Sequence record: NZ_CP011600.1
Direction: 5' to 3' (one strand)
Length of the DNA: 64,000 nt
Origin: a plasmid
The notes under the pieces were generated by a model. That model was not told the DNA's origin, did no database searches, and was given only the letters and a program-made list of their open reading frames with translations. A program made the position numbers and the translations under genes. This document shows, one piece after another, positions 19,585-56,789 of the stretch (position 1 is its first letter; every line of letters begins with the position of its first letter).

Positions 19585-19620
19585 AACTGCAAGATGAAAT
19601 CTTGCGTGGGGTGTGATGAA
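19585..19620 (+). other. oriT: oriT core: inverted repeat GCAAGATGAAATCTTGC followed by F-like nic motif GCGTGGGGTGT|GATG
   Basis: F nic region is TTTGCGTGGGGTGT^GGTGCT preceded by an inverted repeat. Here it is 19604-19618 with predicted nick about 19614/19615 on the + strand, making the + strand the T-strand with the leading region to the right. Confidence 0.6.
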
Positions 19621-29396: not shown

Positions 29397-29401
29397 TAAA
29401 T

Positions 29402-32455: not shown

Positions 32456-32517
32456 TCGCTGTTACCGGCAGTTTTTGCTGCCCGGCTTTAATCAACTTCA
32501 GATTTAGCGGAGAGGCT

Positions 32518-33438: not shown

Positions 33439-33446
33439 CGCCCGAT

Positions 33447-34250
33447 ATGTTGACGCGCAGACATTTTCTCACCACCACAGGAGCGTTGCTGATGACAACA
33501 TTACTGCCGGGGGAAACCCTGGCAGCCTCTCTGGCTGAAAAAGTCAGTGAAACATGGCAAAAAATAAACACCCGCCGCAATCAACAAGAGGCGATAACGC
33601 CGGGCTGGGTTTTGCAGTCGCTCGGGCTTAAACCTGGCTCAACTGAACTGCGAAGAGCCATTTTTGAGCTGGTCAGGCGGATACCCTATCAGCTCGGTGC
33701 ATGGAATGGCGAAAGCATGAGTCTGTTTCAGCAGGGCTTTGGCGACTGCCGTCATAAAGCCGCTGCTGCCGAACGACTGCTGACCGATGGTGGCATTACG
33801 GCAAAGCGAAAGCTGGTGCGGTTTGACTGGGCTGATTTGCCTGTACCTGCGGATATTCTGGCAATTTTGCCGCAAACACAGGGATTTCATGACACTGTGG
33901 CTTTTGAGCTACAGGGCAAAACATACCTGTTTGATGCCACCTGGGATATGGCCTTGCGCGGAGCGGGTTTCCCGGTGATGCCTTCCTGGGATGGCAACTC
34001 TGATACCTGGCCGGTGACTTCCCGGATGTCGACGCAGCAAACCGTACTAATGCCGCAGCCAGGGCAGGACATTTACAGCACTAACCAGATGAGCTGGCCG
34101 CAGCGCGAGAAAACCATGGCGTTTAATCAGGCACTGAATAACTGGCTGGAGGTCATTCGGGCTAACCGTGATGACTGGTGCACCATTATCCATAGTGATA
34201 TTGAAGCCACCCGGTTGAGCCTGAAAACCTGTCTGGGACAACTGAGTTAA
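33447..34250 (+). CDS. Tat-exported transglutaminase-like (Cys-His-Asp) protein
   Basis: Twin-arginine signal RRHFLTTTGALL. Core GFGDCRHKAAAAERLL resembles the transglutaminase-like catalytic Cys region. Confidence 0.45.
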   Translation: MLTRRHFLTTTGALLMTTLLPGETLAASLAEKVSETWQKINTRRNQQEAITPGWVLQSLGLKPGSTELRRAIFELVRRIPYQLGAWNGESMSLFQQGFGDCRHKAAAAERLLTDGGITAKRKLVRFDWADLPVPADILAILPQTQGFHDTVAFELQGKTYLFDATWDMALRGAGFPVMPSWDGNSDTWPVTSRMSTQQTVLMPQPGQDIYSTNQMSWPQREKTMAFNQALNNWLEVIRANRDDWCTIIHSDIEATRLSLKTCLGQLS

Positions 34251-34440
34251 TTCCCTTCTCGTCAGGAGGGGCTGCGCAGGGAAGCGGCGATAACACCTTC
34301 GACACTTTTTATGCTGCTTCAGGTATAACGCTGGGATACCTGAAGCTTTTTTATTTAACATCCAAGATAACAGACGAATCAGTATCCTCCTCACCCGGAT
34401 AAAGCTTGTCATTTTTTTCAGGTCCCTCTATGCTTTGAAT

Positions 34441-34457
34441 ATCCCCCTGGGGGGGAT
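34441..34457. promoter_or_regulatory. G/C-tract palindrome ATCCCCCTGGGGGGGAT (RcnR-type operator candidate) overlapping a TTGAAT -35-like hexamer
   Basis: 27 bp upstream of the MFS ATG at 34484. Confidence 0.5.
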
Positions 34458-34483
34458 GTGATTTCAAACCAAGAGATTTCCTG

Positions 34484-35782: not shown

Positions 35783-35887
35783 TTTCCCAAAAAAAGACAA
35801 CGTATCAGGAGAGGATAAGCCGATAAAAAGTGTGACCATGGCGTTGATACACATTATCTTATCCCTTCCACCTGGAGAGGATAAACC

Positions 35888-36157
35888 ATGACCGTTCATG
35901 CATCACACCCTGACATTATTAAAAGACTTAAACGTGCCGCAGGGCACCTGAAAAGTACCATCCAGATGCTCGAAGATGAGAAAGCATGTCTGGATATCGC
36001 CCAGCAACTGCACGCTGTGGAAAAGGCGATAACGAATGCGAAGCGTACCTTAATTCATGACCATCTGGATCACTGCCTGGAGGATGCCCTTCATGCTGAC
36101 CACACGGAGTCTGATAAGACGCTTAGCGAATTTAAAGAGATAACTAAATATCTTTAA
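35888..36157 (+). CDS. rcnR: RcnR/FrmR/CsoR-family metal-responsive repressor
   Basis: 89 aa. Conserved H-C-H-H fingerprint (His3..., Cys34, His59/His63 region) and overall similarity to E. coli RcnR (..LKSTIQMLEDEKACLDIAQQLHAV..). Imperfect palindrome TTATCCCTTCCACCTGGAGAGGATAA overlaps its RBS. Confidence 0.75.
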   Translation: MTVHASHPDIIKRLKRAAGHLKSTIQMLEDEKACLDIAQQLHAVEKAITNAKRTLIHDHLDHCLEDALHADHTESDKTLSEFKEITKYL

Positions 36158-36169
36158 GGCAAGCGAAAC

Positions 36170-37300
36170 ATGACTGATTTTTCCACTCTTTTACAGCAAG
36201 GCGTGGCCAATGCCTGGCTGTTCATCCCCAGCGCTATTTTGCTCGGTGCGCTTCACGGACTGGAGCCAGGGCATTCCAAAACGATGATGGCCGCCTTTAT
36301 TGTGGCCATCCGGGGAACGGTCAAGCAAGCGGTATTACTGGGGCTTGCCGCGACAATTTCTCATACGTCTGTTGTCTGGCTCATTGCGTTCGGCGGAATG
36401 TATATCAGTCAGAAATTCACTGCTGAATCAGCCGAACCCTGGTTTCAGCTGATTTCCGCCGTCATCATTCTCGGTACGGCGGCATGGATGTTCTGGCGAA
36501 CCTGGCGCGGCGAAAAGCTGTGGAAGATGGAGCAGGAAGAGGAACACAGCCACGGTCATCACGATCATGACGAAACCCGCATCATCGATACGGGCCATGG
36601 CAGCGTTGAACTCTCGATTTTCGAAGAAGGACAACCCCCTCACTGGCGTTTACGCTCGCTCAGCGGCAAGAAATGGGAAGCTCGCGACATTTCTCTGGTG
36701 ACCAACCGTGGTCCAGGGACATTTTCACAGGTATTTGATTTCGTCGAAAAAGACGGGTTTATGGAATCGGCCCTGGCGATCCCGGAGCCACACAGCTTTG
36801 ATGTTCGCCTGTCTTTAGGCCATCGCGGCCATGTGCATGATTATGATGTGGAATTCCGTGAACATGAACACGACCACGATCATTCCTCGCTGGAAGGTCT
36901 GGATGTTAATTCTCGCGAATATCAGGATGCTCACGAAAAAGCGCATGCGAACGACATCAAAAAACGTTTTGCGAATCGCAGCGTAACCACCGGACAAATA
37001 ATCCTGTTCGGCCTGACCGGCGGCCTTATTCCTTGCCCGGCAGCCATTACCGTTTTGCTGCTCTGCATCCAGGTGAAGGAATTTACGCTCGGTGCCGCGC
37101 TGGTACTGTGTTTCAGCATCGGTTTAGCGATCACGCTGGTTTCAGTGGGCGCAGCGGCGGCTTTCAGCGTTCGTCAGGCAACCAAACGCTGGAGTGGCCT
37201 GGATACGCTGGCGCGGCGGGCTCCATACTTCTCAAGCGTACTGATTGCACTTGTCGGCATTTACATGGGCTATCACGGCTGGATCGGCGTAACGAGCTGA
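36170..37300 (+). CDS. rcnA: RcnA-like Ni/Co efflux protein (NicO family) with expanded His-rich loop
   Basis: 376 aa. N-terminal LGALHGLEPGHSKTMM motif typical of RcnA/NicO. Central loop HSHGHHDHDE...HRGHVHDYDVEFREHEHDHDH. Confidence 0.8.
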   Translation: MTDFSTLLQQGVANAWLFIPSAILLGALHGLEPGHSKTMMAAFIVAIRGTVKQAVLLGLAATISHTSVVWLIAFGGMYISQKFTAESAEPWFQLISAVIILGTAAWMFWRTWRGEKLWKMEQEEEHSHGHHDHDETRIIDTGHGSVELSIFEEGQPPHWRLRSLSGKKWEARDISLVTNRGPGTFSQVFDFVEKDGFMESALAIPEPHSFDVRLSLGHRGHVHDYDVEFREHEHDHDHSSLEGLDVNSREYQDAHEKAHANDIKKRFANRSVTTGQIILFGLTGGLIPCPAAITVLLLCIQVKEFTLGAALVLCFSIGLAITLVSVGAAAAFSVRQATKRWSGLDTLARRAPYFSSVLIALVGIYMGYHGWIGVTS

Positions 37301-37329
37301 TTTTCTCCTGTATGAATCTCACGCCTGAA

Positions 37330-37355
37330 CCCACCAACCGGTGGGTTTTATATTT
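37330..37355 (+). terminator. rho-independent terminator CCCACCAACCGGTGGG-TTTTATATTT after rcnA
   Basis: Seen in sequence. Confidence 0.6.
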
Positions 37356-37374
37356 CTGAAGCCCATCATATTTT

Positions 37375-37449
37375 TATCCCCCTGCCGGGGATAGGAATTG
37401 AGCTTTTATAGCCGCTCATTTATCATCGACAATATCCCCCATGGGGGAT
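37375..37449. promoter_or_regulatory. two G/C-tract palindromes (TATCCCCCTGCCGGGGATA at 37375-37393 and ATCCCCCATGGGGGAT at 37434-37449). The second lies between a TCGACA -35 and a TAAAAT -10.
   Basis: Upstream of the ORF at 37462. Promoter elements inferred by eye. Confidence 0.5.
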
Positions 37450-37461
37450 GTAAAATTATAA

Positions 37462-37884
37462 ATGGAATCTGCTATGCAAAAACAATATTTCAGTCAGTTC
37501 GTCACCGGAGTGTTACTCACTTCGTTCATCGCCATTCCTGCTCTGGCAGCGCAAGGTGGCTTCTCCGCAGAGAAAGAGCCTGTCGTCACTGAGCACATGT
37601 ATGCCGGTCATAAAGTTCAGCAGGAGAATAGTCAAAGCCGGATTCAGATCGTATCGTCAATGCACGAAGGGGCGTGGATCACACTGGAAGGCAATGTTGT
37701 CAGCCAGCAGCAGGACGAGTGGTATACGTTCCGCGACCCAACCGGTACCATCAAAGTCCGCATCCCGCAGAAAGTCTGGAACGGGCAGCACTTCGATGCT
37801 CAGGACCTGGTACGGGTCAGTGGACCGGTAAGCCATGAAAATGATGGTTCAATTTTATATGTTGCAGTTATCAGCAAACCCTAA
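37462..37884 (+). CDS. YgiW/YdeI (BOF, bacterial OB-fold) family periplasmic protein
   Basis: Signal peptide. C-terminal ...ITLEGNVVSQQQDEWYTFRDPTGTIKVRIPQKVW... matches the BOF/DUF388 pattern. Confidence 0.5.
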   Translation: MESAMQKQYFSQFVTGVLLTSFIAIPALAAQGGFSAEKEPVVTEHMYAGHKVQQENSQSRIQIVSSMHEGAWITLEGNVVSQQQDEWYTFRDPTGTIKVRIPQKVWNGQHFDAQDLVRVSGPVSHENDGSILYVAVISKP

Positions 37885-38089
37885 AACACAATTCTGACGG
37901 GCTATGTTTTTTTATATATATAGTTCGTCAACCAAACGTCCGCTTCTCGCTCTTAGCGGACATTAGCATAGGCTATTTACCATAACGCCGCATTACGCGC
38001 ACCGCCCAGACTGACTCAGCGCGTTTCTGGCATATCCCCGGTAAAACAAGTAACAAACCACCCGAAAATGAACACCAGAAACGCGACTT

Positions 38090-39560
38090 AAGAATCTACC
38101 CTATGAATGGATATGCACTCAACCGAATCGATCTTGGTTTCAATCTTTTTTATCGGGATCAGGCTTCTTTTTAGGTAACTTCGGGGGCTTAACTTGCTGA
38201 TGACTTTGCGTTCGGCGCGTAAGCCAGGGATGGTCAGCTTTAGGTTTAACATAGTATTTTGAGCGTAAATCAATACGGGCATTATCCACTCGTTCATGGA
38301 CACTCTTTTCATCATCCAGTGGTATAGGCTCCGGGCCATCAACATACTTTTCCCAGCCCAGCGCTTTCCCGTCATACAGAACGTTAATTTCACCGTCAAA
38401 GTTCTCGCATACAGTAACAACCGAATGCCTAAGTCGATATCCCCGGCCCTCACTGCGTACCTGAAACGCACTGCTTTTGTACTGGAAAGTGAGATTTTTA
38501 GACAGAACGCGCTTCGCCTGTAGGCTGAAGATATAACCCAGTTCCTCTTCAGAATGGTGCACATCAAGATGAGCATTATCAGTAGTACGAGGCGACGTAG
38601 CGAACCGGTTGTTATAGGCTTCAATAAAGGTCGGCAACCATGCATTTGCTGTTTCAATATCACTGATATTCTGAAGCCGCATTTCTTTGACCAGCCTGTC
38701 CTGTAGTGTCTGATTGGCGCGCTCTACCCGCCCTTTTGCCTGCGGGCTGTTGGCATGGATTGGCTCGATGCCCAGTGTCTTTATCGCACGAGTGAACTGG
38801 GTCAGCTCACCTTCCCGCTCTGGGTTATTTACCCTGAATATACTGTGTCTATCAGAGTAGAGAGCGAGCGGTACGCCATGATCATTAAGGTAACCCCGGA
38901 GGGTTTCCATGTAAGCCCGGGTTGTTTCAGCAGGCACAAAACGCAACGCCATCAACGCACTGGTGGCATCATCAATGAAAACGATCAGTGTACATCTGGG
39001 GCCTCGATTTTCAAACCAGTCATGAGGTGAGCCATCAATCTGGATCAGTTCACCGTAAGATGGTCGTCGCATGCGGCGTTGATATATACGGGCAATTTTA
39101 CGACGGCGTTCACGCCATAACCCCTCTTCTATCATCCACTTTCTGAGAGTTTCAACGGATAAAGATAAACCGTGTATCTCGCGCAATTTTTCGCACGCAA
39201 ACGTAGGTCCAAAATCAGCGTAACGGCCTTTGAGGAGTGAAATTACTGTTGCTCTGAATTCAGTAGAAAAGGAATTATTAGGACGCTTTCCACGTCGGTG
39301 GGAAACCAGACCAGAAGGCCCTTCATTTCTATACCGTTGCACCAGACGTTTAACCTGCCGAATAGAAATGCCAATGCGTGCCGCAGCTTGTTCCTGAGTA
39401 ATATGTCGATTAATTGACTCCTGAATAATCTGAAGTCGGTGGAGTTCCTTATGACTCATCGTAACAGTCTCTTTGATCATGAAAAATCCCCCAGAGAATT
39501 GTCTGGGGACATTTTAGAATGGTTCAAAGGGGACATTACAGCTTGGTGTTAACACATAGC
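38090..39560 (-). mobile_element. insertion sequence (IS481/ISNCY-like); boundaries approximate
   Basis: Single transposase ORF 38140..39480. Inverted repeats could not be defined by eye. Confidence 0.4.
38140..39480 (-). CDS. DDE transposase (HTH plus rve integrase core), IS481/ISNCY (IS1202-group)-like
   Basis: 446 aa. N-terminal HTH (ITQEQAAARIGISIRQVKRLVQRY). Integrase-core region with D...D...E spacing. Basic C-terminal tail. Confidence 0.7.
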   Translation of the reverse strand: MIKETVTMSHKELHRLQIIQESINRHITQEQAAARIGISIRQVKRLVQRYRNEGPSGLVSHRRGKRPNNSFSTEFRATVISLLKGRYADFGPTFACEKLREIHGLSLSVETLRKWMIEEGLWRERRRKIARIYQRRMRRPSYGELIQIDGSPHDWFENRGPRCTLIVFIDDATSALMALRFVPAETTRAYMETLRGYLNDHGVPLALYSDRHSIFRVNNPEREGELTQFTRAIKTLGIEPIHANSPQAKGRVERANQTLQDRLVKEMRLQNISDIETANAWLPTFIEAYNNRFATSPRTTDNAHLDVHHSEEELGYIFSLQAKRVLSKNLTFQYKSSAFQVRSEGRGYRLRHSVVTVCENFDGEINVLYDGKALGWEKYVDGPEPIPLDDEKSVHERVDNARIDLRSKYYVKPKADHPWLTRRTQSHQQVKPPKLPKKKPDPDKKD

Positions 39561-39796
39561 TGACTTCTCCTTGCCTTTCGGCAGGTAAGCGGCTAATCTG
39601 TTGGTGTCTAGTCATACAGATTAAGCCTCGGGTTAATTGAAAAAATTACTCGGGGCTTTCTGCTTTTTGCCTCACAACACGGCAACAAACCACCTGAACA
39701 TCATGAGGCAAAAAGCCTCAAGCGCCACCGCCATTATACCCCGGAAGTGGGTATTTTCACCAGGACTCTCCCCGATTTTCAGGCAGTTATCTGCGA

Positions 39797-41319: not shown

Positions 41320-43344
41320 TTATGCGGCGTGGTCAGTCGCGGACGGGGTGGCGGTCGTGTTGGTGCTGGCGTCGTCGGCAGCGGTCATCGGCTGCGGACG
41401 GGTCATCCAGTCCGGCACCCAGCGTGTATCAGTGAGAATGTCCTGCGCGAGCGTAGCGGCATCACCTTTTTTGAGTTTCAGGACGTCGCGGGAGCGTTCG
41501 GCAAATCCGGACTCCTGCACCGCATCGGCAATCTGATCTTTGCTGATTTTGCTGAAATAGTTCTCAGCGGTCGGTTGCCACCATTCGTACAAGTCGATAT
41601 CGAGCGCGGTTTCCAGCACGTCCAGTGGGCTGCGGTCTGTTTTGCCGTTTGCCCGTTTCTGCACCCCATTGACGGCAGAGGCCACGCAGAAGGCCAGCAG
41701 TGCCTGGACAGCCTGCTCGCTCCATTCGAGCAACCAGGTAAAATCCTGTTTCCAGTTCGCAGGAAGCATTGCCTGGAGTGCTGCCTGTTGTCCCTGAATC
41801 GCCAGCCATGCCGCCCCCTCCCTGCCTGACGGCGCATTACTTTGCAGTGTCCAGGTCTGCTGATGCAGATTGATACACAGTGGTGCCTGCACACCTGTAC
41901 ACCAGTCCCCTTCAAACACCTCGCGGCAGAATGTCCAGGTCAGGAGCGCCATCGACACTTTTGGGCTTGTTGCGAGGACGGCCTGAGTGACGAGAGAACG
42001 TTCAGCGGACAGCGTTTCGACCAGGTTTGCTGAAAATGCGTCTGCTTTGATGTCCGGCTGACGCAGGGTGATCACGCCGTTTTCATTTGTAACGTCTGCA
42101 TCCTGTGAACGGGTTTTCGGCAGGTCTTCCACTTTGCCGATGGCTCGCTGGATGTAAAAATCGCTGCCGTCACGACTCATGGAAACCACAATGCCCAGAC
42201 CCGCCTTAAATTCCGGTGTCAGCTGGCGATTAACTGCCGCCGCCTCCAGATCTTCCAGTTCCTGCTGGAACTGGTTTTCGTCGTCATAGTTATCGGATTC
42301 CTCAAGGGCAGCATCCAGTGCTTCAATGCGTTGCCGTTCGGCAGCGGTGTACTCCGGTTCAGGCATGGCGAAATACCAGGATTTATTATCCGGATGGTAA
42401 TTTTTGACAGGTTCAATACGGGCCAGGCTCCAGCCCCACCCTTCTTCCTGTTGCAGGCGCAGCGCCTCTGCATCAAGTTTGCTCTGAACAAGACGGTTAA
42501 CCAGCAGGGTGTCTGCCCATCCTTCCGTTTCTACCGAGAATAAATCGCGGCGCAGTGCTCCCCCTTCGGCTTCATAGGCTTCCGGGCCAACAAATCGGAA
42601 TGCCGGAGAGGCCATCGTCATTTCCCCGGATACGATCTGATTACGCAGCCAGGTCAGTTGAGGGACGCCGTTGCCATAATATTGTTTTGCCGCCGTCCAG
42701 ATTTGCACCTGACGGGCCTGATCAGGCTCCAGCGTCAGTACCTGGCACTGTTCCAGGGTGATGGCATCGTTTGCCAGTTCCTGAATCAGTTCCGGGGCAA
42801 GGTTTGCGAGTTTCAGACAGCGCTCCACGTGGCGTACCGTGTAGCCCAGCAGATCAGCAATCTGTGCGGCGGTCTGCCCTTCCTCTGAACGCATGCGGAA
42901 ACTGATAAGCTGTTCTGCCGGATGCATGGCCTTGCGCTTCATGTTCTCGATGTAGGATGCATCCTTTGCCAGTTCGACCGGGATGGCCTTTACCGGGACA
43001 AAAAGCTGGTCAGCGGCGATAAAACCTTCTTCAACCAGTTTTGCCGTGGCGGTCATGCGCCCACGTCCCCCGACCACACCCCGGCGGCCCCCCGGCAGAT
43101 TAATGACAATCAGGTTTTGCAGGATACCCACCGCTTTGATAGTCGCCGCCAGACTCGCAATCTCTTCCGGGGTGTGCGGGATAATACGGGCGTTATATTC
43201 CGTATCGACCAGATCAGAAAATGCCACCATTTCAAGCGGAGACTGTGCCAGTGCCGCCTCCACGCTGGCAGTCTGTACGGCAGTCGCTTTTCGTGCGCGG
43301 GTGGATTTGGCAGGTGCTTTTGCCTTAGTATTGGTGTCAGCCAT
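41320..43344 (-). CDS. ParB-like nuclease domain protein of plasmid leading regions (large, about 670 aa)
   Basis: N-terminal ParB/Srx-like motif LIVINLPGGRRGVVGGRGR. Long acidic/helical remainder. Position upstream of psiB as in F-like plasmids. Confidence 0.7.
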   Translation of the reverse strand: MADTNTKAKAPAKSTRARKATAVQTASVEAALAQSPLEMVAFSDLVDTEYNARIIPHTPEEIASLAATIKAVGILQNLIVINLPGGRRGVVGGRGRMTATAKLVEEGFIAADQLFVPVKAIPVELAKDASYIENMKRKAMHPAEQLISFRMRSEEGQTAAQIADLLGYTVRHVERCLKLANLAPELIQELANDAITLEQCQVLTLEPDQARQVQIWTAAKQYYGNGVPQLTWLRNQIVSGEMTMASPAFRFVGPEAYEAEGGALRRDLFSVETEGWADTLLVNRLVQSKLDAEALRLQQEEGWGWSLARIEPVKNYHPDNKSWYFAMPEPEYTAAERQRIEALDAALEESDNYDDENQFQQELEDLEAAAVNRQLTPEFKAGLGIVVSMSRDGSDFYIQRAIGKVEDLPKTRSQDADVTNENGVITLRQPDIKADAFSANLVETLSAERSLVTQAVLATSPKVSMALLTWTFCREVFEGDWCTGVQAPLCINLHQQTWTLQSNAPSGREGAAWLAIQGQQAALQAMLPANWKQDFTWLLEWSEQAVQALLAFCVASAVNGVQKRANGKTDRSPLDVLETALDIDLYEWWQPTAENYFSKISKDQIADAVQESGFAERSRDVLKLKKGDAATLAQDILTDTRWVPDWMTRPQPMTAADDASTNTTATPSATDHAA

Positions 43345-43576
43345 TAGTGTTTCCTCTACGTTACGTTGATGGTGATGCCGTGACCGGATAGCCCTCCGGT
43401 CACGGCGCTAATATTCAGTTATGCGTTATCGATTCGCGCCGGATGTACCGCCAGCTCTGCCAGGACGGTTACAGGGAGCTGAGTTTCAGTCGTCTGGATC
43501 AGTGAACTGTTTTCAGGTGTGGTCATAATGCTCTCCGGCGTTTCCTTTAAAAGCCGCCCCTGTGGGCGGCGGCGTG

Positions 43577-43891
43577 TTAAATGTTGATCCCATTGCGCGC
43601 GATCAGACGCACAAACTGTTTGAAATGGTCAGCCTCGACCACCGGAACGTGGCAAAAATCTTTATCCACACCCGCACTGACGATGTAGTGATAAGCCCTT
43701 TTCATTTTTTCCGGGGCGCGGCTGCGATAGCTTTTCAGCGACGCGAGGGAGTCGAACTCCAACACATCCATTTCCTCCGTTGAGTTTTTCTCGCCTTCGG
43801 CGATCAGAATGAGTAAAGGCGAGGGGTTTTTAATCCATCTTCCGGCGGTTTCTTCTCCGGCGCTTTTGACGTTGACGTTCTGTGTGTGCAT
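43577..43891 (-). CDS. hypothetical protein carrying the conserved leader MHTQNVNVKSAGEETAGR (sits where ssb is found in F)
   Basis: 104 aa, downstream of Frpo-like copy D. Internal GGAGG-ATG (MDVLEFDSL...) is an alternative start. Confidence 0.45.
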   Translation of the reverse strand: MHTQNVNVKSAGEETAGRWIKNPSPLLILIAEGEKNSTEEMDVLEFDSLASLKSYRSRAPEKMKRAYHYIVSAGVDKDFCHVPVVEADHFKQFVRLIARNGINI

Positions 43892-44350
43892 CCTGGTTTT
43901 CTCCTTCGGTGACGGTTAATCCATCTCCCTTGGCTGGTACTCTCGCGGCAACGGGCCAGGTAGCGACGGCGAACGGAAAAGACCAGGGCGCGCCTGCGCG
44001 TGCACTTCACCCTGGTGTTTTTCGGGCGAACGGTGCTACAGCAGCCCTCCGCGTGAGGACAGCAGTGGGAGATGGCCTCACCGGACTGACAGAATGCACA
44101 CACACGACCCGGCAACGTCACACCGCCGGGTCGCCCTTAAAGCGCCGGCGCCCGTCGCCGGCGCGGTGAGAGCGGCGCGTCCCCCGGACGCAGCAAGCGC
44201 GCCCCGGACGTTGCCATCGGACACTAGCGAGCAGCCCGAAACCCGAAGGGGTTCGGCGGAGCTTAGCCGGCGGCCTGCCGCCGGGTTAGCGGAGTGTGGC
44301 CCTGACGACCCGGCCGGCACGGACGGGAAGCCGAAGGGGGCCATGTTCAG
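43892..44350 (+). promoter_or_regulatory. Frpo-like structured repeat, copy D
   Basis: Gene-proximal 120 bp and distal about 230 bp match copies A and B. Central part differs. Confidence 0.45.
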
Positions 44351-44580
44351 GCTGTTTTCAGTGAAGCTGGCCGGGTGCCAGAGACAACGGCAGACCACAA
44401 CCCACCGGAACAGGACGCATAACGGCACTGTCTGCACGACATCCCGGCAGACCTGCATAACTGAACGATGTAAGGTGGGGAGAGACGCCGCGCCCGTGGC
44501 GCGGGGTTTCCCGCACCGCCGCGCAGCGGCAGGGTTTTCCGCCGTCCCAAAGGGGGGCACCGGGCTTCCCTGCCCGTCTC

Positions 44581-44991
44581 TTATTTGCCCAGCGTTTTTC
44601 TCAGAGCGTCCAGTGCCCGGGCCTCATCCGGGTAGTTGCGCGCGGCCGCCCCCTCTCCCCCCTGTATGTCCTCCAGTCGCATAAATTCACCTGCCAGCGC
44701 CAGCACATTTTTCAGCGCGGCGGCAGGCACACTGATTTGACGGTGCCAGGCTTCTTCCTCACGCAGGTTTTCCAGAATGCACACGAGGGTATCCTCCCCC
44801 ACGCCGCACACATGCTTGTCATCCAGACTGTCAATCAGCGCGACGATGCGCGCCGCCATAATCTCAGTCACGTGGTATTCAGCCAGGCAGTCCTGCACGT
44901 CCTCTTTTGTCCAGACAATCAGTGCCAGCGGCTCATCCGGTTTGTATTGCTCAGTCAGTGCGGCGCACAGCGCCTCAGTGGTTCCGTACAT
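44581..44991 (-). CDS. hypothetical leading-region protein, paralog of 46188..46604
   Basis: 136 aa. Shared LALIVWTKEDVQ / LLLFIWTQESIR region. Confidence 0.45.
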   Translation of the reverse strand: MYGTTEALCAALTEQYKPDEPLALIVWTKEDVQDCLAEYHVTEIMAARIVALIDSLDDKHVCGVGEDTLVCILENLREEEAWHRQISVPAAALKNVLALAGEFMRLEDIQGGEGAAARNYPDEARALDALRKTLGK

Positions 44992-45099
44992 ATTTTTTCT
45001 CTCTCAGGGGCGGCAACGCCGCCCGGTCAGACTATCGTGCTCATCAGGGCACGGCAGGTACTGGTGAACAAAAGCGGGAGTCCGCTTTTTTACGGTGTT

Positions 45100-45300
45100 C
45101 TATTCGCGTGGAACAGTCCGGCCACCCTGTATGATGAACTGGTTGCATAAATACACGCTGACCTGGCATGTCATGTATTCACACATCGAATCGAGGATTT
45201 TTGCGGTAGTGACGGGAGGCAGCTCCATGTCCCGGCGGCGTTGGTTAATCAGTTCCTTGTACTGCCTGAGAATATTGCGGGTATCAGTGCTGAGTTCCAT
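45100..45300 (-). CDS. small hypothetical protein (66 aa)
   Basis: RBS AGGAGATAAAC-ATG. Confidence 0.35.
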   Translation of the reverse strand: MELSTDTRNILRQYKELINQRRRDMELPPVTTAKILDSMCEYMTCQVSVYLCNQFIIQGGRTVPRE

Positions 45301-45344
45301 GTTTATCTCCTGGGGGGCGGCAGCGCCGCCCCGTTGTGATTCTG

Positions 45345-45776
45345 TCAGTCCAGCGCGCGCTGAATAACAGCGGCATCCGGGTGGGTTTCAATAAACGCCA
45401 TGAGCGCTGAAAAGCGGTTGCAGAAATGGGCGCACAACTCGTCATTGTCATGGTGACTGTGATAAAAACTGCGGTGATTGAGCACCAGTGCCGTCACGAT
45501 GATGCCCGCGACTTCGCCGCTCACCTCCTGCTCAAACCAGTTATCCGGGTTGCAGAACATGACAGTTTCCCTGTCCGGCACCATGAAACCTGCACCATCC
45601 GGCAGGCTGTAGTACTCCCAGAATCCCCCGTTGTAGCCGTCGATATACCGGCTGGCATAGGCATACACGGACAACTCGGACAACATGAAATCGCTGCTGA
45701 ACAGGGACGGCAAAAAAGTCAGGCGCTGTGCGCCGTCAAGACGTGTCGCATCGGTGTGGCTGAGTGTGGTGATCAT
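45345..45776 (-). CDS. klcA: KlcA/ArdB-family antirestriction protein
   Basis: 143 aa. ...VYAYASRYIDGYNGGFWEYYSLPDGAGFMVPD...HPDAAVIQRALD parallels RK2 KlcA ...YAWMRRLCERYNGAYWHYYALSDGGFYMAPD...HPEAAAIYRAID. Confidence 0.75.
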   Translation of the reverse strand: MITTLSHTDATRLDGAQRLTFLPSLFSSDFMLSELSVYAYASRYIDGYNGGFWEYYSLPDGAGFMVPDRETVMFCNPDNWFEQEVSGEVAGIIVTALVLNHRSFYHSHHDNDELCAHFCNRFSALMAFIETHPDAAVIQRALD

Positions 45777-45783
45777 AAATCCT

Positions 45784-46150
45784 CCGCTGGTTAAGTGGGT
45801 TACTGTTCCGGCTTGCGCCGTGCCGACACGACAGCCCGGCGGTCAGCGGAAGAATGCAAGGGCGACACCGGAAGCCGCACGCGCCGTTGTGAGCGGGCTG
45901 AATGCGCCGCGAACAACGGGGAACGGGTGAGGATGGCGAGCGCCAGCGTCCCTTGCAGGCGCCGCAGCCGGGCTACAGTGAAGGCACGGCGTTAGCCGTC
46001 ACCGCACGGAGGTCAGCATTATCAGTGGTCCGGTCGCAGCCCGCAGGGATACGGCCGGACATCAGGGAGGAGCAGCGCGACACCCTTTTTCCCGTAAGGC
46101 GTCGCCCGCCAGGGTGAAGCCGGGTAACAGCGGAGCCGGCGACAACCTTA
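45784..46150 (+). repeat. family-2 GC-rich structured intergenic repeat (GCCGTGCCGACAC...GGGCTGAATGC...GAACGGGTGAGGATG...GTGAAGGCACGGCG), copy 1
   Basis: Three clear copies (45784-46150, 47590-47880, 48140-48420), each directly upstream of a minus-strand gene. Termini are inverted (GCCGTGCC...GGCACGGC). Confidence 0.6.
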
Positions 46151-46187
46151 TGGGCTGCAAAAAGCCGGGGGAATCCCCCCGGCCTCA

Positions 46188-46604
46188 TCAGGCGGCCATC
46201 AGCGTTTTGATGGTGTCCACATCCTGCATGGCGCGTTTAATACTCACGGGTGTCGGATGCCCTTCTTCCCATGCAAGCCCTTCCTGGTGCACCAGTTCGG
46301 CTTCATGGCGGGCAATCAGGCGTTGCAGGACATCCACCGGGACCGGTACTGTCCGGGTTGCATCTTCCCGGATACGTGCCAGCAGGGTTCTCACCGTCTC
46401 ATGCGAAAATCCGTCTCGCTGGTAGTCCGCCATTGAAAGGCTTCCGGCCTGCAACATGAGTTGTTCTGTTTCCTGGTCTGACGGGTGCATACTGTTGCAG
46501 GCGGCCCGGATACTCTCTTGTGTCCAGATGAACAGCAGCAGGGGCTCTTTCGCTTTGAACATACGGACCAGTTCGTCACAGGCTTCTTTGCGGTTACGGT
46601 ACAT
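46188..46604 (-). CDS. hypothetical leading-region protein, paralog of 44581..44991
   Basis: Start placed at MYRNRKEACDEL (ATG 46602-46604, RBS AGAGGGA). Confidence 0.45.
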   Translation of the reverse strand: MYRNRKEACDELVRMFKAKEPLLLFIWTQESIRAACNSMHPSDQETEQLMLQAGSLSMADYQRDGFSHETVRTLLARIREDATRTVPVPVDVLQRLIARHEAELVHQEGLAWEEGHPTPVSIKRAMQDVDTIKTLMAA

Positions 46605-46659
46605 CGTGATTTCCCTCTTTTTTGTCAGTTGACCGGGCATGTCATGCCCGGCAGTGGTG

Positions 46660-46881
46660 TTAGTCCTGAAAACTCTCGTCCAGCTCCAGCATCTCCCGGT
46701 AGGCCTCCAGAAAACGGGCATTGATCCGTCTCAGGGTCTGAGCGGCCATGCGTCCGGCCAGCGTGGCCGAATCATGCCGGTGCTCTGATTCCAGACGGTT
46801 CAGCATCATCCGGACGTCACACATGGCGTTGCTGAGCGCTGCGACGTCGGCGCGCAATGCTTCCAGTCCCGGGTAATTCAT
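46660..46881 (-). CDS. small hypothetical protein (73 aa), coupled downstream of the methylase
   Basis: RBS GGAGG. Start overlaps the methylase stop. Confidence 0.4.
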   Translation of the reverse strand: MNYPGLEALRADVAALSNAMCDVRMMLNRLESEHRHDSATLAGRMAAQTLRRINARFLEAYREMLELDESFQD

Positions 46882-47570
46882 GCGGCCTCCGGCCAGTCAG
46901 GATGAAAGGCGCCATCGTTGGCCGCCGGCATCCGGCGCGCCCGTTCGACCTGCGCCAGACGGCGGACGCCGGCGGCGTGGTATTCCTCAAGCAGTTCGAT
47001 GCCGATATAACGACGGCTGGCTTCGGCGGCTGCCACGCAGGTCGATCCGGAACCCGCAAACGGGTCGAGGATGATCGCACCCGGGCGTGTGAGGGATTCG
47101 ATGAGCGGGCGAAGGCTCTGCACCGGTTTTTCCGTCGGGTGGTGGCGGTTGCCCGTGTATTTCCAGGGAATGACGTCAGGGATGGGGCAATCCGGTGTCT
47201 GCGGCCGCCCTTTGGCCAGCAGATAGGCACTTTCGTGGGTGTAGCCCACAAACGTGGATTTCGAGGCATACGTTTTGGCAAATACCACGTGCCCGACAAT
47301 CCGGAAGCCGGCCTGTTTCCAGGCGTTAATGAACAGATCGGCACGGTTCCACGCGTAGAAACTGACCATCAGGCTGTCCTGTTTCAGCACGCGGTACATC
47401 TGCTGGCAGGCAGGCTCCAGCCATTCCGGCGTGTTATCGCCGGCGAGCGTGCGGCCTGAACGGTCGCGGTAGCCGACGAGATACGGCGGATCGGTCAGAA
47501 TAAAATCGACGGCACGGGACGGAAAACGGGACATGACCTGCACACAGTCACCCAGGATAAAACGGGACAT
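46878..47570 (-). CDS. orphan DNA N6-adenine/N4-cytosine methyltransferase (DPPY motif)
   Basis: Start at MSRFILGDC (ATG 47568-47570, RBS GGAGAG). Motif IV ILTDPPY, motif I region DPFAGSGSTCVAA. No adjacent endonuclease. Confidence 0.75.
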   Translation of the reverse strand: MSRFILGDCVQVMSRFPSRAVDFILTDPPYLVGYRDRSGRTLAGDNTPEWLEPACQQMYRVLKQDSLMVSFYAWNRADLFINAWKQAGFRIVGHVVFAKTYASKSTFVGYTHESAYLLAKGRPQTPDCPIPDVIPWKYTGNRHHPTEKPVQSLRPLIESLTRPGAIILDPFAGSGSTCVAAAEASRRYIGIELLEEYHAAGVRRLAQVERARRMPAANDGAFHPDWPEAA

Positions 47571-47589
47571 AGCACTCTCCTCTCTCATA

Positions 47590-47880
47590 TGCGGCACCCT
47601 CTTGCGCCGTGCCGACACAAAAGCCCGGCTTTAAGCGGCAGGCGAAAAGGGCGTCACCGCAAGCCGCACGCGCCGCTGTGAGCGGGCTGAATGCACCGTG
47701 AACAGCGGGGAACGGGTGAGGATGACGGCGTCAGCGCACCCTTAGAGACGACGCGGCCGGGCTAGCGTGAAGGCACGGCGTGCAAACACACCGGCGCCCG
47801 TCACAACGGGGGACGGTTCTGTCGCGGAGCGCAGCGACCTCCTTTCGCAAAAGAGGCCGCCCGAAGGCGACCGGCAGGCT
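47590..47880 (+). repeat. family-2 structured intergenic repeat, copy 2
   Basis: See 45784..46150. Confidence 0.6.
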
Positions 47881-47882
47881 TA

Positions 47883-48116
47883 CTACTCCCGCATCCTTTC
47901 GATGGCCATCTCCAGTGTGTACCAGTTGAACCCCACCTCTGCATCATGCTGGTCGTCGGCGATTTCCATCGCCGCCTCAATGTCTTCATCTGTCAGCGAG
48001 GGATCGAGAGAAAGAAAATCCTCCGCCAGCCAGAACGTCCCCAGACAGAGGGCATCTTCCGGGTATCTCTGCAACCGCGCGATAAGGCCGGCAATGGTCA
48101 TTGGGGATCTGTGCAT
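47883..48116 (-). CDS. small acidic hypothetical protein (77 aa)
   Basis: Start at MHRSPMTIAGL (ATG 48114-48116). Confidence 0.35.
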   Translation of the reverse strand: MHRSPMTIAGLIARLQRYPEDALCLGTFWLAEDFLSLDPSLTDEDIEAAMEIADDQHDAEVGFNWYTLEMAIERMRE

Positions 48117-48139
48117 GTTTGTCTCCGGTATAGTGCGGC

Positions 48140-48420
48140 CAGACAGGATTGCCTGCGCCGTGCCGGCACACAAGCCCGGTGAAAAGCCGAAGTCGGAGGG
48201 GCGACACCGCAAGCCGCAGCGCAAAACCTTTACGGGCTGAATGCGCCGTAAAGGGTGCGAACGGGTGAGGATGGCGAGCGGCAGCGGTACCCGGATGACG
48301 ATGCGGCCGGGCTACCGTGAAGGCACGGTGCAGGTGGAAGCATATCCGGCTCCGGCTGGCGAATTTCGTCAGTCCGGAAAAAAGCGGGCCAGGCCCGCTT
48401 CGGATATCAGCAAAGCCGGG
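48140..48420 (+). repeat. family-2 structured intergenic repeat, copy 3
   Basis: See 45784..46150. Confidence 0.55.
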
Positions 48421-49228
48421 ACATAAATGCCCGCATGGCCTGGATGCGCTCATGCGACCGTATCCGTTCCTGCCAGTCATTGAAGAACCAGACTGGAGTA
48501 TGACGCGTCAGGTTCATCTGCAGTGTCAGGGTATTGCCGGTGTTCACCGTGGCCGGAATGCCCAGCAGGCTGAGTTGCACAAACGTCATGTCTGCCGCCA
48601 GTGGATCGATATCAATGGTGGTGACCAGAAGCTGTGTCGCGGGATTCAGCCCGGCCTGCAGCATAATCTCCGCAAATGCAATGACCATGCCCCCTGCCCC
48701 GCTTGTTGGCTCCTGCAGACTGATAAAGGGGCAGGATTTCAGCTGCGCCAGTAAGTCACCGGCGGCCAGCTGCGCCAGCAAAGATGAAACGGAATGCGGC
48801 GTGAAGTATTGCCCCATCTCATCGGCTCCCAGCTCAAGCTCCATGTAAACCGAACCCAGAAAATCCTGGTGCGCTTCTGAGAGCGCAGCGACCATGAGCG
48901 AAAACAGCGTATGCATCCGGTCGATATCCGACGCTTTATAGCGGGCGATAATCTGGCTGCAGCGCGCCCTGCTTTCCGGCGTGTGAATGCGGACCAGATC
49001 CAGTTCGCTGGCCGCCAGGGTGACAAAATCACGAAAGACCTCACTGCGCCGCAGATACGTCGCTGTCTGGCAGAATTCATCAATGAAGGCCTGCCGCGTT
49101 TGCCCCCGGACTTTGCGTGCAGGAACGCTAACAACTGCGGGCAGTGCCCGGGCAGCTGTCAGGTCTGAAACGGGTACTGATGGCGTGATGGCCATATCCG
49201 GTGCATCAAACATAGAGAGCTGAGACAT
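48407..49228 (-). CDS. HsdM-like N6-methyltransferase-domain protein, possibly degenerate
   Basis: GQYFTPHSVSSLLAQL...EPTSGAGGMVI matches HsdM motifs X and I. No convincing NPPF/Y motif IV was seen. Confidence 0.45.
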   Translation of the reverse strand: MSQLSMFDAPDMAITPSVPVSDLTAARALPAVVSVPARKVRGQTRQAFIDEFCQTATYLRRSEVFRDFVTLAASELDLVRIHTPESRARCSQIIARYKASDIDRMHTLFSLMVAALSEAHQDFLGSVYMELELGADEMGQYFTPHSVSSLLAQLAAGDLLAQLKSCPFISLQEPTSGAGGMVIAFAEIMLQAGLNPATQLLVTTIDIDPLAADMTFVQLSLLGIPATVNTGNTLTLQMNLTRHTPVWFFNDWQERIRSHERIQAMRAFMSRLC

Positions 49229-49500
49229 TACGCCCCCTCCCCTGGCAGCGTGATAAAAAGACCGTCCATGGGTGCAGCTGCAGCAACAGGATAGCCTGAG
49301 ACAATCCAGACCTGCAGATAATCCGGTCCCGCATCCCAGAAGGCCACAAGTTCTTCGCTGTCTGCCGGTGGGGTGAAATTATCCGGGAACTGCAGACCGG
49401 GCACAGTCATGATCCAGTCAAACAGGTCCAGGACCTGGTCTGTTGAAAGTGATGATTCTTTAGATTCTTTTGCTGCGGTGTTGACGTTTTTCTGTGACAT
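49228..49500 (-). CDS. hypothetical leading-region protein, paralog of 21210..21512
   Basis: Start MSQKNVNTAAKESKES (ATG 49498-49500, RBS GGAGGA). Start/stop overlap with the upstream gene. Confidence 0.5.
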   Translation of the reverse strand: MSQKNVNTAAKESKESSLSTDQVLDLFDWIMTVPGLQFPDNFTPPADSEELVAFWDAGPDYLQVWIVSGYPVAAAAPMDGLFITLPGEGA

Positions 49501-49820
49501 GTTGGATTTCCTCCGGGTTAAGTTGATGTTTCTCTGAGTTCCTTCGCCGCAGAAACAGGCAACCCACACGGAGACAAGGAGGATGCAGGGAGAACGACAA
49601 AGCCGCAGCCCGGAGCCTGCGAAGGGACCGGGTGCCGTCGTTCAGCTCTGCGGTCCTTGCAGCCGACGGCCGTGTGGGACAGTCCTGTGCGGTGAAGAAC
49701 GGGAGAGACATCAGTTCGGGGACAGAACAGGTCACAGTTCCGGAACGCAACGCGTGACGGGCTAAAGCGTGCCGGTACGGCACAGTGAAAGCGACATGGC
49801 CAGAGGCCATTGTCAGCGCA
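49501..49820 (+). promoter_or_regulatory. GC-rich structured element upstream of 49228..49500 (third, more diverged Frpo-like element)
   Basis: Hairpin-rich, for example GCAGCCCGGAGCCTGCGAAGGGACCGGGTGC and GCGTGCCGGTACGGCAC. Same position relative to its gene as the other elements. Confidence 0.35.
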
Positions 49821-49821
49821 T

Positions 49822-49845
49822 AAAAAAACCCGCGGAAGCGGGTTT
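49822..49845 (-). terminator. rho-independent terminator AAACCCGCTTCCGCGGGTTTTTTT (minus strand) ending the stb operon
   Basis: Perfect GC stem then a 7-T run on the minus strand. Confidence 0.65.
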
Positions 49846-49871
49846 ATGTGTCGCAATATGAGAAGGGTTGG

Positions 49872-50120
49872 TTACTTTTTCTTTTCTTCCACAGTCAGTA
49901 TCACCCCGCCGCAGATCAGCAGGGCATACACCAGTTGCAGTATGATTTTCACGGCAACCGACACATCATCAAACATTACAAGCGGGACGATCGCCAGAGT
50001 GCTGGCAAGAAGCATATTCTGCCCCACCGACTTCATGCGGGTCCGCAGCTGCTGTTCTGGCACACCGGCCTTAAGGAACATGGTTGCAGTAACGCTTTTA
50101 ACCCGGGAGGTGAATGTCAT
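49872..50120 (-). CDS. small membrane protein (82 aa)
   Basis: Two TM segments. Coupled after the ParR-like gene. Confidence 0.35.
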   Translation of the reverse strand: MTFTSRVKSVTATMFLKAGVPEQQLRTRMKSVGQNMLLASTLAIVPLVMFDDVSVAVKIILQLVYALLICGGVILTVEEKKK

Positions 50121-52563: not shown

Positions 52564-52992
52564 ATGTTTCATTTTACTCGCCCGGCTATCAACCCGGAGC
52601 CATTCACAGCCCCTTTGTTTACGGAACGGTGCCAGGCCGGGTTCCCCAGTCCAGCCCAGGACTATGTTGAAGCAGAACTGGACCTGAATGAGTTTTGTAT
52701 CCAGCGACGCAGTTCAACCTATTTTGTCCACGCAATAGGTAACTCCATGACCGATATAGGATTACACTCGGGGGATTTACTCATTGTCGATAAGGCTGAA
52801 CGGGCACGTCACGGCGACATTGTCATTGCCGAGGTGGATGGAGAATTTACAGTAAAACGTCTGCTTTTAACTCCCCGCCCTGGCCTGCAGCCCATGAATC
52901 CTTCTTACCCTACTCTCTGGCCAGACCCGGAACACCTTCAGATATTCGGTGTGGTGATGGCATTCGTGCACAAAACCCGGGGACATGACTGA
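52564..52992 (+). CDS. umuD: UmuD/MucA-like LexA-family (S24) self-cleaving accessory protein
   Basis: 142 aa. Cleavage site and catalytic GNSM...K motifs. Overlaps the umuC start. Confidence 0.85.
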
Positions 52993-55452: not shown

Positions 55453-56705
55453 TATTTACCTCCGTTTGAACGAACAAACTCAATCCGATCGAAGACTGCT
55501 TTAGCAAAGTCCTCAGCTGCTAATTTCGCATTCTTGAGTGCATCACTGCTTCCATCATATGTGACCGGATTGGCTGATATAACAGTATCAAATGTCTCCC
55601 CACTTCGTTCAAAACCATCCAGCCTGGGTAGAACCGCATCCAGCATGTCAGCACCAAAAACTTCCTTTGCCTGACTTAAACAAATTTTATGGTCAGGTTT
55701 ATTCAGTATTTTTGACATGTAACCTATGTTTCCGATAAGCCGACATTCATGCCCTTCGGCCTCAATGCTTCCAATTAGATCAGGAAGACTCGCAACGAAT
55801 TTCAGTGAAGAATGAAAATCGATGGTGGCAGGGGGAAGCGGGGTGAGGAGGATGTCAGCCGCTCCAATGCCATTTTTAAGGAAAGCATCAAGATGGGGAC
55901 CAGTATCAATAAAAATAAAATCGTAATCTTTTTCTAACTTATCGATGATATTTTCTCTGAGCACCGCATGTATGTTTTGACCTGGCAAATTATCGTTGCA
56001 CAGTTCTTTCCACCGTTCAGCCAAAAAAGCATCATCAATTGAAGCCGGAATAATATCGACTCCTGGAATCGTGGTTGGAACGATAAATTCTGACATCAGT
56101 TCTTCACGGCTTACATTCTGAAGCATTGCCTGAGCAGCCGTCTCTTCAACCAGGCCAACTGAAGATTCATGGCGAAGTAACATTGTCAGAGAAGCCTGAG
56201 GATCAAAATCGAGTGCTAAGACTCTGATATCTTCATAGAGAAGATGCGGGTGAGCCCTGAATGCATGTGCAAGCGTGGCTGTAGAAACAGATTTAGACCC
56301 ACCACCTTTAAGATTCGCAACAAAAATTGTGAAAGCTTTTGGATGACGATCTCTGTACTTTGGTACTCCACGGTGTCGATATAAATCGATGACGTTTTGT
56401 AACGTCATCGCATACTTGACGGTATTCCCAGATGGTTTTTTATTGAATTCATAGCCATCTGATTCCATTTCATTCACAGCGTATTCAACACTGCCTTTGC
56501 TTAGCTTGGGTAATTTATAGAGAGATGCTTTGCTGTATACCTGGTAAAATTCATTTTGTTTTAATTCCTGTTTTTCTTCACGAACGTGTTCACTCAATGA
56601 AGTCAACATTTTGTGTGCTCTTGATGCTACCTTCTTCAACTGATCTAAGTTTCGCATGATGTTTACCTGATGACGTTTTTTGTCATTTTGACCAAAAAGC
56701 TTCAT
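55452..56705 (-). CDS. parA: ParA (type Ia Walker-type partition ATPase with N-terminal HTH extension)
   Basis: 417 aa. Deviant Walker A KGGGSKS. Confidence 0.85.
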   Translation of the reverse strand: MKLFGQNDKKRHQVNIMRNLDQLKKVASRAHKMLTSLSEHVREEKQELKQNEFYQVYSKASLYKLPKLSKGSVEYAVNEMESDGYEFNKKPSGNTVKYAMTLQNVIDLYRHRGVPKYRDRHPKAFTIFVANLKGGGSKSVSTATLAHAFRAHPHLLYEDIRVLALDFDPQASLTMLLRHESSVGLVEETAAQAMLQNVSREELMSEFIVPTTIPGVDIIPASIDDAFLAERWKELCNDNLPGQNIHAVLRENIIDKLEKDYDFIFIDTGPHLDAFLKNGIGAADILLTPLPPATIDFHSSLKFVASLPDLIGSIEAEGHECRLIGNIGYMSKILNKPDHKICLSQAKEVFGADMLDAVLPRLDGFERSGETFDTVISANPVTYDGSSDALKNAKLAAEDFAKAVFDRIEFVRSNGGK

Positions 56706-56789
56706 GTTGCAAGATATTATTCATGAGATTTTGGTATTTAGCACATTTCTTTCGAGGTAGTGTTCAACGGGGCATGTCTTTGGTTTAAG

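Follow-up and report, generated by a model that had tools for sequence, protein, structure and literature searches.

Plasmid sequence NZ_CP011600.1 carries, in the 64,000-nucleotide (nt) stretch that we analysed (hereafter the window), three intergenic repeats that we read as single-stranded DNA (ssDNA) promoters. We assign them, with a probability of about 0.85, to the superfamily of the class 2 and class 3 ssDNA promoters of plasmid pESBL and of the corresponding elements ssp2 and ssp3 of plasmid F. Their probable role is to switch on anti-restriction genes before the incoming DNA has become double-stranded. An earlier note, made from the sequence alone, had suggested that they are ssDNA promoters or primosome-assembly (ssi) sites. 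The promoter suggestion gains support from homology to the tested elements of pESBL and F and from the anatomy of the repeats, namely their location on the transferred (T) strand, the -35 and -10 boxes on the 3′ arm, the unpaired adenine at -11, the fixed distance to the gene and the lack of a double-stranded DNA (dsDNA) promoter. Elements of this kind have been published and tested in F and pESBL between 2024 and 2026, and the window repeats are a further variant. Since the kind of element is already known, the gain is incremental.

The plasmid genes expressed during the first minute in a new host are determined by ssDNA promoters, which therefore influence whether a resistance plasmid survives restriction there. 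The range of class 2 and class 3 promoters extends beyond F and IncI1 plasmids; related sequence is found in 4004 plasmid records, mostly IncF plasmids of Klebsiella. The repeats also yield sequence rules that are directly testable: an invariant TAnnGT, an -11 A that is always unpaired, and a -35 T that is kept despite wobble pairing.

Three copies of a 181-nt repeat on the transferred strand

All three repeats lie on the + strand. Copy 1 (45812..45992) is upstream of klcA, copy 2 (47601..47781) is upstream of the operon of an orphan N6_N4 methylase, and copy 3 (48152..48331) is upstream of a 77-aa open reading frame (ORF). The earlier note had placed three copies of about 280-370 bp here. The three homologous copies are present where it put them and all the sequence blocks that it quoted are common to them, whereas the unit is shorter, at ~181 nt, and the rest of each spacer shows no more similarity than shuffled sequence. 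These spacer remainders contain the intrinsic terminators of the upstream cassettes. Pairwise identities between the cores of the three copies are 84%, 76% and 77%, and the family profile scores the copies at E = 1e-44 to 4e-47. The two ends of each copy are mutually complementary (CGCCGTGCC / GGCACGGCG), as had been noted; in copy 1 the outer stem is formed by CGCCGTGCC (45816-45824) paired with GGCACGGCG (45983-45991).

The strand that enters the recipient can be read from the origin of transfer. An F-type oriT nic motif, the 12-mer TGCGTGGGGTGT, occurs once in the window (19603..19614, + strand) and adjoins traM, with TraM to its left. The identical 12-mer is found in the oriT of F (L080, 17158-17169, minus strand), again on the strand opposite the leading genes, and we take it to be the F nic region. 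A search with the 18-nt F nic sequence, allowing three mismatches, gave no match in the window. As TGCGTGGGGTGT is on the + strand, the + strand is the T strand and also the template of the minus-strand genes. The T strand enters 5′ to 3′, and the leading region extends toward higher coordinates, where the minus strand holds all leading genes of the window. The repeats thus lie on the T strand as template of the gene behind them.

The genes are arranged as in an F-like leading region: hok/sok, psiA, psiB, a ParB-like gene, DUF1380, the antirestriction gene, DUF1380 and the DNA methylase, followed by a small ORF, an N-6 methylase, stbAB/parM and umuDC. Plasmid pENT-812c of Enterobacteriaceae bacterium ENNIH2 (IncFIC, MOBF, MPF_F) is 100% identical over window positions 45700-48500. 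A block of chromate (chrAB) and nickel (ncrABCY) resistance genes with an ISEsa1 transposase occupies window positions ~27000-39400, inside the leading region and between the oriT-proximal cassettes and hok/sok. This block is present in Phytobacter plasmids and absent from pENT-812c, and it shifts the three repeats (family 2) ~12 kb farther from the nic site.

Homology to ssDNA promoters of F and pESBL

The family profile (nhmmer) finds two elements in F (NC_002483). The first, at 56482-56724 (E = 1.5e-16), is directly upstream of the antirestriction gene yfgB and corresponds to ssp2, and the second, at 52660-52822 (E = 3.7e-16), is upstream of a DUF1281-like ORF that heads a methylase operon and corresponds to ssp3. 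In pESBL, sequence reading and an alignment (A3) place homologous elements upstream of klcA, of ardA and of the DUF1281-M.EcoGIX operon. In pairwise comparisons, copies 1 and 2 score far above shuffled sequence (0/300 shuffles reach the score), and copy 3 against ssp2 less so (2/300).

These relatives have been studied experimentally. The class 2 (klcA, ardA) and class 3 (M.EcoGIX) promoters of pESBL were defined by transconjugant RNA-seq and 5′ rapid amplification of cDNA ends (RACE) and the classes are reported to be conserved in F (Wen et al., NAR 2025, PMC12672017). Transconjugant start sites, zygotic induction and deletion phenotypes have been published for class 2 and class 3 relatives (PMC12672017; Fraikin et al., bioRxiv 10.64898/2026.01.09.698686). 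In F, yfgB/ardB is expressed from ssp2, and plasmids that lack ssp2 transfer less well into restriction-proficient recipients. The ssp2 hairpin also holds up synthesis of the complementary strand until it is resolved by UvrD, whereas ssp3, a promoter of equal strength, forms no roadblock (Fraikin et al., bioRxiv 10.64898/2026.01.09.698686).

Like the window repeats, class 2 elements lie on the T strand of the leading region, and klcA, the first gene behind copy 1, is among the genes that they precede. They have homologous arms (GCCGTGCC...AGCC(C/G)GGC...AAGCCGCA...G(A/C)CGGGTGA...CCCTTGCA-15 nt-TA...GGCACGGC) with equal spacing between the -35 and -10 boxes. They differ in being longer (~243 nt), with a larger apical domain (~60 extra nt) and, for F ssp2, a more stable fold (-76 kcal/mol, as against -50 to -63 for the window copies). 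The window type differs further by an apical hairpin of its own, in which the loop CTGAATG is invariant. A roadblock has been demonstrated for F ssp2. Class 3 elements (pESBL; F ssp3) also have homologous arms, the motifs AAGCCGCA and GACCGGGTGAGGAGG and a similar size (163 nt), and they drive methylase and DUF1281 genes, which are also the commonest genes behind the window-type element; they lack the GGGCTGAATGCNCC apical hairpin of the window type. In size and stability the window type (181 nt, -50 to -63 kcal/mol) is thus intermediate between ssp3 (163 nt, -48 kcal/mol) and ssp2 (243 nt, -76 kcal/mol).

Class 3 is treated as unrelated to class 2 by Wen et al. (PMC12672017). The alignment of F ssp2 with ssp3 scores 40, against 19 +/- 2.5 for shuffles, and the similarity between class 2, class 3 and the window type covers both arms as well as the motifs AAGCCGCA and G(A/C)CGGGTGA. 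Judged by sequence, the three form one superfamily whose members differ mainly in an exchangeable apical insert.

The described sequences Frpo*1 and Frpo*3 belong to the family of the window repeats, which they match over the full length with 72-78% identity (profile E = 1e-42 to 1e-43). They are low-certainty candidates from an insect-metagenome island, listed in a supplementary table with 'considerable differences in the -35 and -10 elements' (Samuel et al., Nature 2024, PMC11541004, Supplementary Table 2). Both sequences also occur in contigs of Candidatus Erwinia dacicola (L007, L058).

Sequence similarity to the class 1 promoters (F ssiD = Frpo1, Frpo2, and ColIb-P9 ssi1-3) is not detectable. 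No blastn match at E < 0.01 was obtained between the repeats and F ssiD, F ssiE or ColIb-P9 ssi1-3, no class 1 sequence was matched by the family-2 profile at E <= 10, and the class 1 profile gave no match in 45.8-48.4 kb. Class 1 shares with the window type a T-strand hairpin that rebuilds a sigma-70 promoter for leading genes, in equal position and orientation. It differs in its length of ~330 nt and in having an A/T-rich apical hairpin, AAAAAGTTTTTG, with the function of an UP-like element. Instead of an A/T-rich hairpin near the -35 box, the 181-nt window type has a G/C-rich invariant apical domain with AAGCCGCA, CTGAATG and GAACGGGTGAG.

Hairpin fold and covariation

ssDNA folding, proposed as a check in the earlier note, returns a long imperfect hairpin for each copy, with energies of -55 to -63 kcal/mol (z = -4.2 to -4.6; 0/200 shuffles as stable); in the comparison with F ssp2 and ssp3 the range is -50 to -63 kcal/mol. 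Relatives were sought in one genome per species with the pattern CTGAATG-N12-22-GAACGGGTGAGSA. Among the 76 loci found, ~18 are chance matches in unrelated phyla and the rest are from Enterobacterales, in which ~45 species carry the 181-nt type. Carriers include Pantoea, Erwinia, Serratia, Enterobacter, Leclercia, Kluyvera, Kosakonia, Rahnella, Buttiauxella and Franconibacter. For the comparative analysis, 59 distinct full-length copies were aligned (alignment A2), and the counts given below refer to this set.

RNAalifold recovered part of the fold from a MAFFT alignment with either RNA or DNA parameters. The recovery was partial because the variable inner stem is not structurally aligned, so the minimum free energy structure of copy 1 was projected onto the 59-copy alignment, and its pairs were counted with slid-partner and shuffle controls. 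Standard pairs occupy 79% of the cells, compared with 32-40% when partners are slid by 1-3 columns, and 35 of the 68 pairs have changed on both sides. The observed covariation score was reached by 0/500 shuffles. The inner hairpin with loop CTGAATG illustrates this, as its stem has been wholly replaced between lineages with pairing kept (e.g., CCGTTGT/ACAACGG, CCTTCAC/GTGAAGG and GAAAACCAG/CTGGTTTT); a further helix of the element is AGCCCGGC/GCCGGGCT. Covariation across the 59 copies thus supports the long hairpin fold.

The two strands are not equivalent in the fold. The + strand folds better than the - strand in 57/59 copies, by a mean of 6.6 kcal/mol, and its non-canonical oppositions are G.T more often than A.C (206 vs 119) and purine-purine more often than pyrimidine-pyrimidine (469 vs 215).

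Putative promoter anatomy of the 3′ arm

In the T-strand hairpin, transcription toward the gene has the 3′ arm, taken from loop to base, as its non-template strand, and the conserved promoter motifs lie on this arm. The -35 sequence CCCTTG is nearly invariant, and T167, which begins TTG, is present in 58 of the 59 copies. After 15 nt follows the -10 sequence T-A-n-n-G-T, in which T189, A190, G193 and T194 are invariant in 59/59. The key positions of a sigma-70 -10 box are -12 T, -11 A and -7 T. T167 is in a G.T wobble in 43/59 copies and is nevertheless kept, which suggests selection on the base itself and not on pairing. The base that faces the -11 A is A in 31 copies, C in 25, G in three and T in none, so this key adenine has no pairing partner in the hairpin of any copy. 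The gene-ward strand of the duplex form has T(T/G)TnGT instead, and the -11 A is predicted to be lost there.

Each window copy forms a stable imperfect stem-loop that rebuilds these boxes on the + strand, with the -35 TTG lost in copy 3. Copy 1 has the -35 box TTGCAG (45953-45958), a 15-nt spacer and the -10 box TACAGT (45974-45979), and its -11 A (45975) is mismatched with C45832. Copy 2 has the -35-like box TTAGAG (47742-47747) and the -10 box TAGCGT (47763-47768), with the -11 A (47764) opposite A47621. In copy 3 the -35 position reads CGGATG (48292-48297) and the -10 box TACCGT (48313-48318), with the -11 A (48314) opposite A48172. Copy 3 is the sole copy of the set without T167, and its -10 box and stems are intact; as the promoter of the 77-aa ORF, it may be weaker or work independently of a -35 box.

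The predicted start is ~7 nt past the -10 box, inside the outer stem, at T-strand template positions ~45821, 47610 and 48161 for copies 1 to 3. The predicted leaders are ~40-45 nt long and end with a Shine-Dalgarno sequence and ATG. Behind all 59 copies, an ORF with Shine-Dalgarno sequence and ATG lies on the opposite strand, and its start falls within an 11-nt range of positions. These ORFs encode N6_N4 methylases (26), KlcA-type proteins (16), DUF1281 proteins (nine) and members of a 77-155-aa family (five). A search of positions 43300-50000 for sigma-70-type dsDNA promoter-like sites found none, compared with 2.8 +/- 1.7 expected. With terminators between them, the cassettes each require a promoter of their own, and the hairpin holds the only conserved promoter-like element.

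Several points weigh against reading the repeats as ssDNA promoters. The -35 box lacks TTG in copy 3 and reads TTA in copy 2, and the 15-nt spacer is short for sigma-70. We infer the boxes and starts in the window copies, and the transcript evidence is that of homologues. The counts over the 59 copies are not independent because the copies are related by descent, the apical helix never varies and covariation is therefore silent about it, and the strand asymmetry is moderate, i.e., supporting and not decisive evidence.

Proposed mechanism

The repeats probably act in the following manner. During conjugation the + strand enters the recipient 5′ to 3′ from nic at 19614, as the position and orientation of the nic motif show. 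Before the complementary strand is synthesised, each ~181-nt element is predicted to fold back on itself, a step that folding and covariation favour. The stem would then rebuild a sigma-70 promoter of the form TTGnnn, 15-nt spacer, TAnnGT; the motifs are conserved and this function is putative. The -11 A would already be unpaired, which should favour open-complex formation. RNA polymerase would start in the outer stem ~7 nt after the -10 box, copy the 5′ arm and run into the adjacent gene, giving a leader of 40-45 nt with a Shine-Dalgarno sequence; 5′ RACE-mapped starts come from the pESBL homologues only. The products would be early anti-defence proteins, i.e., KlcA/ArdB, the orphan methylase and small ORF products. 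Once the complementary strand is completed, the hairpin would be lost, T(T/G)TnGT would replace TAnnGT on the gene-ward strand, the upstream terminators would insulate the cassette and expression would stop. By analogy with F ssp2, an added role as a transient barrier to complementary-strand synthesis is possible.

Alternative explanations

In a first alternative, the hairpins act mainly on DNA synthesis and not on transcription, either as priming signals (primosome-assembly or G4-type ssi sites, or primers made by RNA polymerase) or as programmed roadblocks that delay conversion of the leading region to dsDNA. Transcripts of classical Frpo elements prime synthesis of the complementary strand, and F ssp2 holds this synthesis up until UvrD has acted. 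The fold energies of the window copies also lie between that of F ssp3 (-48 kcal/mol, no roadblock reported) and that of F ssp2 (-76 kcal/mol). CTG is the trinucleotide preferred by DnaG primase, and the invariant apical loop CTGAATG contains it, which is a lead only. Primosome-assembly and G4-type ssi sites lack a sequence consensus; F ssiE shows no similarity to the window. The fixed spacing to Shine-Dalgarno sequence and ATG in 59/59 copies and the conserved -35 and -10 boxes with an unpaired -11 A are, however, promoter features for which a site of priming or barrier function alone would have no need, and F ssp3, with the same arms, has no roadblock activity. We therefore regard action mainly on DNA synthesis as unlikely; a role in DNA synthesis is most plausibly a function added to that of promoter and not an alternative to it.

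In a second explanation, the structure functions in RNA, as a leader, processing site or insulator of minus-strand read-through, or as a plus-sense small RNA. Inverted repeats would pair in RNA too, and covariation alone cannot separate DNA from RNA. The mRNA-sense minus strand, however, folds worse in 57/59 copies, and the types of wobble and mismatch favour the + strand. Terminators just upstream of each element leave little read-through to be expected, and as the predicted start is inside the outer stem, the promoter's own mRNA would be without the hairpin. An Rfam scan of the whole window matched no family within the three repeats (its sole match was sok at 39555-39727), and homologues are transcribed from the ssDNA form according to Wen et al. 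(PMC12672017). A function in RNA is accordingly very improbable.

Least credible of all is that the copies are functionless remnants of a small mobile element resembling a miniature inverted-repeat transposable element (MITE): their inverted termini, multiple copies and spread over 4004 plasmid records would suit such an origin, but orientation and distance to the downstream start codon are the same in 59/59 copies, compensatory change keeps internal helices and not just the termini, the -10 box is invariant on one arm only, and the plasmid matches are always in unannotated intergenic DNA of leading regions. The random orientation and position expected of MITEs were not found; target-site duplications and empty sites were not searched for.

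A candidate recognition module in the apical domain

The apical domain is invariant in the 59 copies, while every outer helix co-varies. In copy 1 its motifs are AAGCCGCA (45872-45879), CTGAATG (45898-45904) and GAACGGGTGAG (45921-45931). Parts of it are common to class 2, class 3, the family-1 elements of the window and a fourth hairpin element described below. Its position, ~58-68 nt ahead of the predicted start, is one at which promoters are contacted by activators or by the C-terminal domain of the alpha subunit. We suggest, tentatively and as a doubtful rather than a favoured possibility, that the domain is a sequence-specific recognition module beyond its role in the hairpin. A host or plasmid factor might recognise such a module and thereby adjust early transcription, priming or the point at which synthesis of the complementary strand stalls. 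The domain, being invariant, would also have become a dedicated landing site for an IS110-family element that imports restriction-modification into an anti-defence island.

Other hairpin elements of the window

The earlier note had set the repeats apart as a class distinct from a first family of elements in the window (family 1). The lack of similarity to class 1 Frpo and ssi sequences agrees with this; the separation from family 1 itself is incomplete, as family 1 shares the apical domain. The family-1 elements are located at 21513-21918, 23788-24197, 25509-25896 and 43892-44249. They match the Frpo*5/*7 candidates of Samuel et al. (2024), three of them at E = 1e-18 to 1e-22 and the 25.5-kb copy at 4e-5, and show no match to the classical F ssiD core. 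Their centre (e.g., 23877-23965) shares the apical domain AGGCCGCAGCGCAA...GAACGGGCGAGGA with family 2 (E ~1e-6) and with pESBL class 3. From these sequence comparisons, the promoter classes look modular.

A further element, at 49501-49820, had been suggested as a possible diverged member of family 2. It is undetected by the family profile, its pairwise scores are at shuffle level, and we rejected it as a family-2 copy on both tests. A hairpin is nonetheless present at 49530..49720 (+ strand; -45 kcal/mol, z = -3.8), upstream of the ORF at 49228-49500. What it has in common with family 2 is limited to the short motifs AAGCCGCA, GACCGGGTG and CCTTGCAG and the layout of a hairpin before a gene. 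It matches F ssiD (E = 0.004) and Frpo*7 (E = 0.035) weakly, and belongs to a rarer type that was found in 50 plasmids.

Genes and terminators around the repeats

Each repeat is directly upstream of a minus-strand gene, and the three genes are those named in the earlier note. The first gene behind copy 1 is klcA, a KlcA/ArdB-type antirestriction gene (45345..45776, - strand; Pfam PF03230, E = 1.3e-22) whose ATG is ~40 nt from the stem base. In copies associated with klcA, the hairpin is followed on its 3′ side by another conserved block, GGGTAA(C/A)AGCGGAGCCGGCG(GC)GAC, which is found at window positions 45993-46187, in pESBL (L083, 6960-7090) and in Frpo'4 of Samuel et al.; copies associated with methylases and small ORFs are without it. 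Behind copy 2, the first gene encodes the orphan N6_N4 DNA methylase, which is M.EcoGIX-like (46878..47570, - strand; Pfam PF01555, E = 2.5e-36), and is followed by a 73-aa ORF, a DUF1380 gene and a terminator. The 77-aa ORF behind copy 3 (47883..48116, - strand) has no Pfam match, and is related to the C-terminal part of a 155-aa protein encoded behind the equivalent element in Enterobacter and Leclercia.

The terminator scan gave two intrinsic terminators on the - strand, one at 46167..46179, at the end of the copy-2 operon and just ahead of copy 1, the other at 47855..47872, at the end of the copy-3 cassette and just ahead of copy 2. Between the N-6 methylase gene and copy 3, a terminator-like hairpin with a T-run (GAAGCGGGCCTGGCCCGCTTTTTTCC; 48378..48403, - strand) was identified by eye and is absent from the terminator-scan list.

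An IS110-family insertion in the copy-2 orthologue

In the Phytobacter plasmid NZ_AP018757.1, the orthologue of copy 2 is split within its invariant apical motif, exactly after GAACGGGTG-AG (window 47720/47721), by a 4501-bp insert (L084, 22850-27350) whose two flanks match the window at 100% identity. Its parts are a left end of 188 nt, a transposase of the IS110 family, a type II restriction-modification pair and a conserved ~95-nt end (...GTTGACATCAAACACAACTG). At the target junction, GAACGGGTGAG is adjoined by GATGACGG, and a copy of the dinucleotide AG (CT on the transposase strand) flanks the insert at either end. The identical junction was observed in seven loci from different genera (L003, L036, L048, L054, L060, L063 and L068), and the insertion sequence with an equal flank occurs in 15 plasmids of Phytobacter, Enterobacter and Rahnella. 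Its left end contains GGGTGAGCATCA, which resembles both target halves on opposite strands and may be the guide of a candidate bridge RNA; Rfam returned no family for this candidate in the left end.

Copy 1 has a further identical counterpart, over the stretch compared, in a contig of 2776 nt (L073) that is binned in a Cereibacter sphaeroides metagenome-assembled genome. This contig is most likely a mis-binned fragment of an enterobacterial plasmid.

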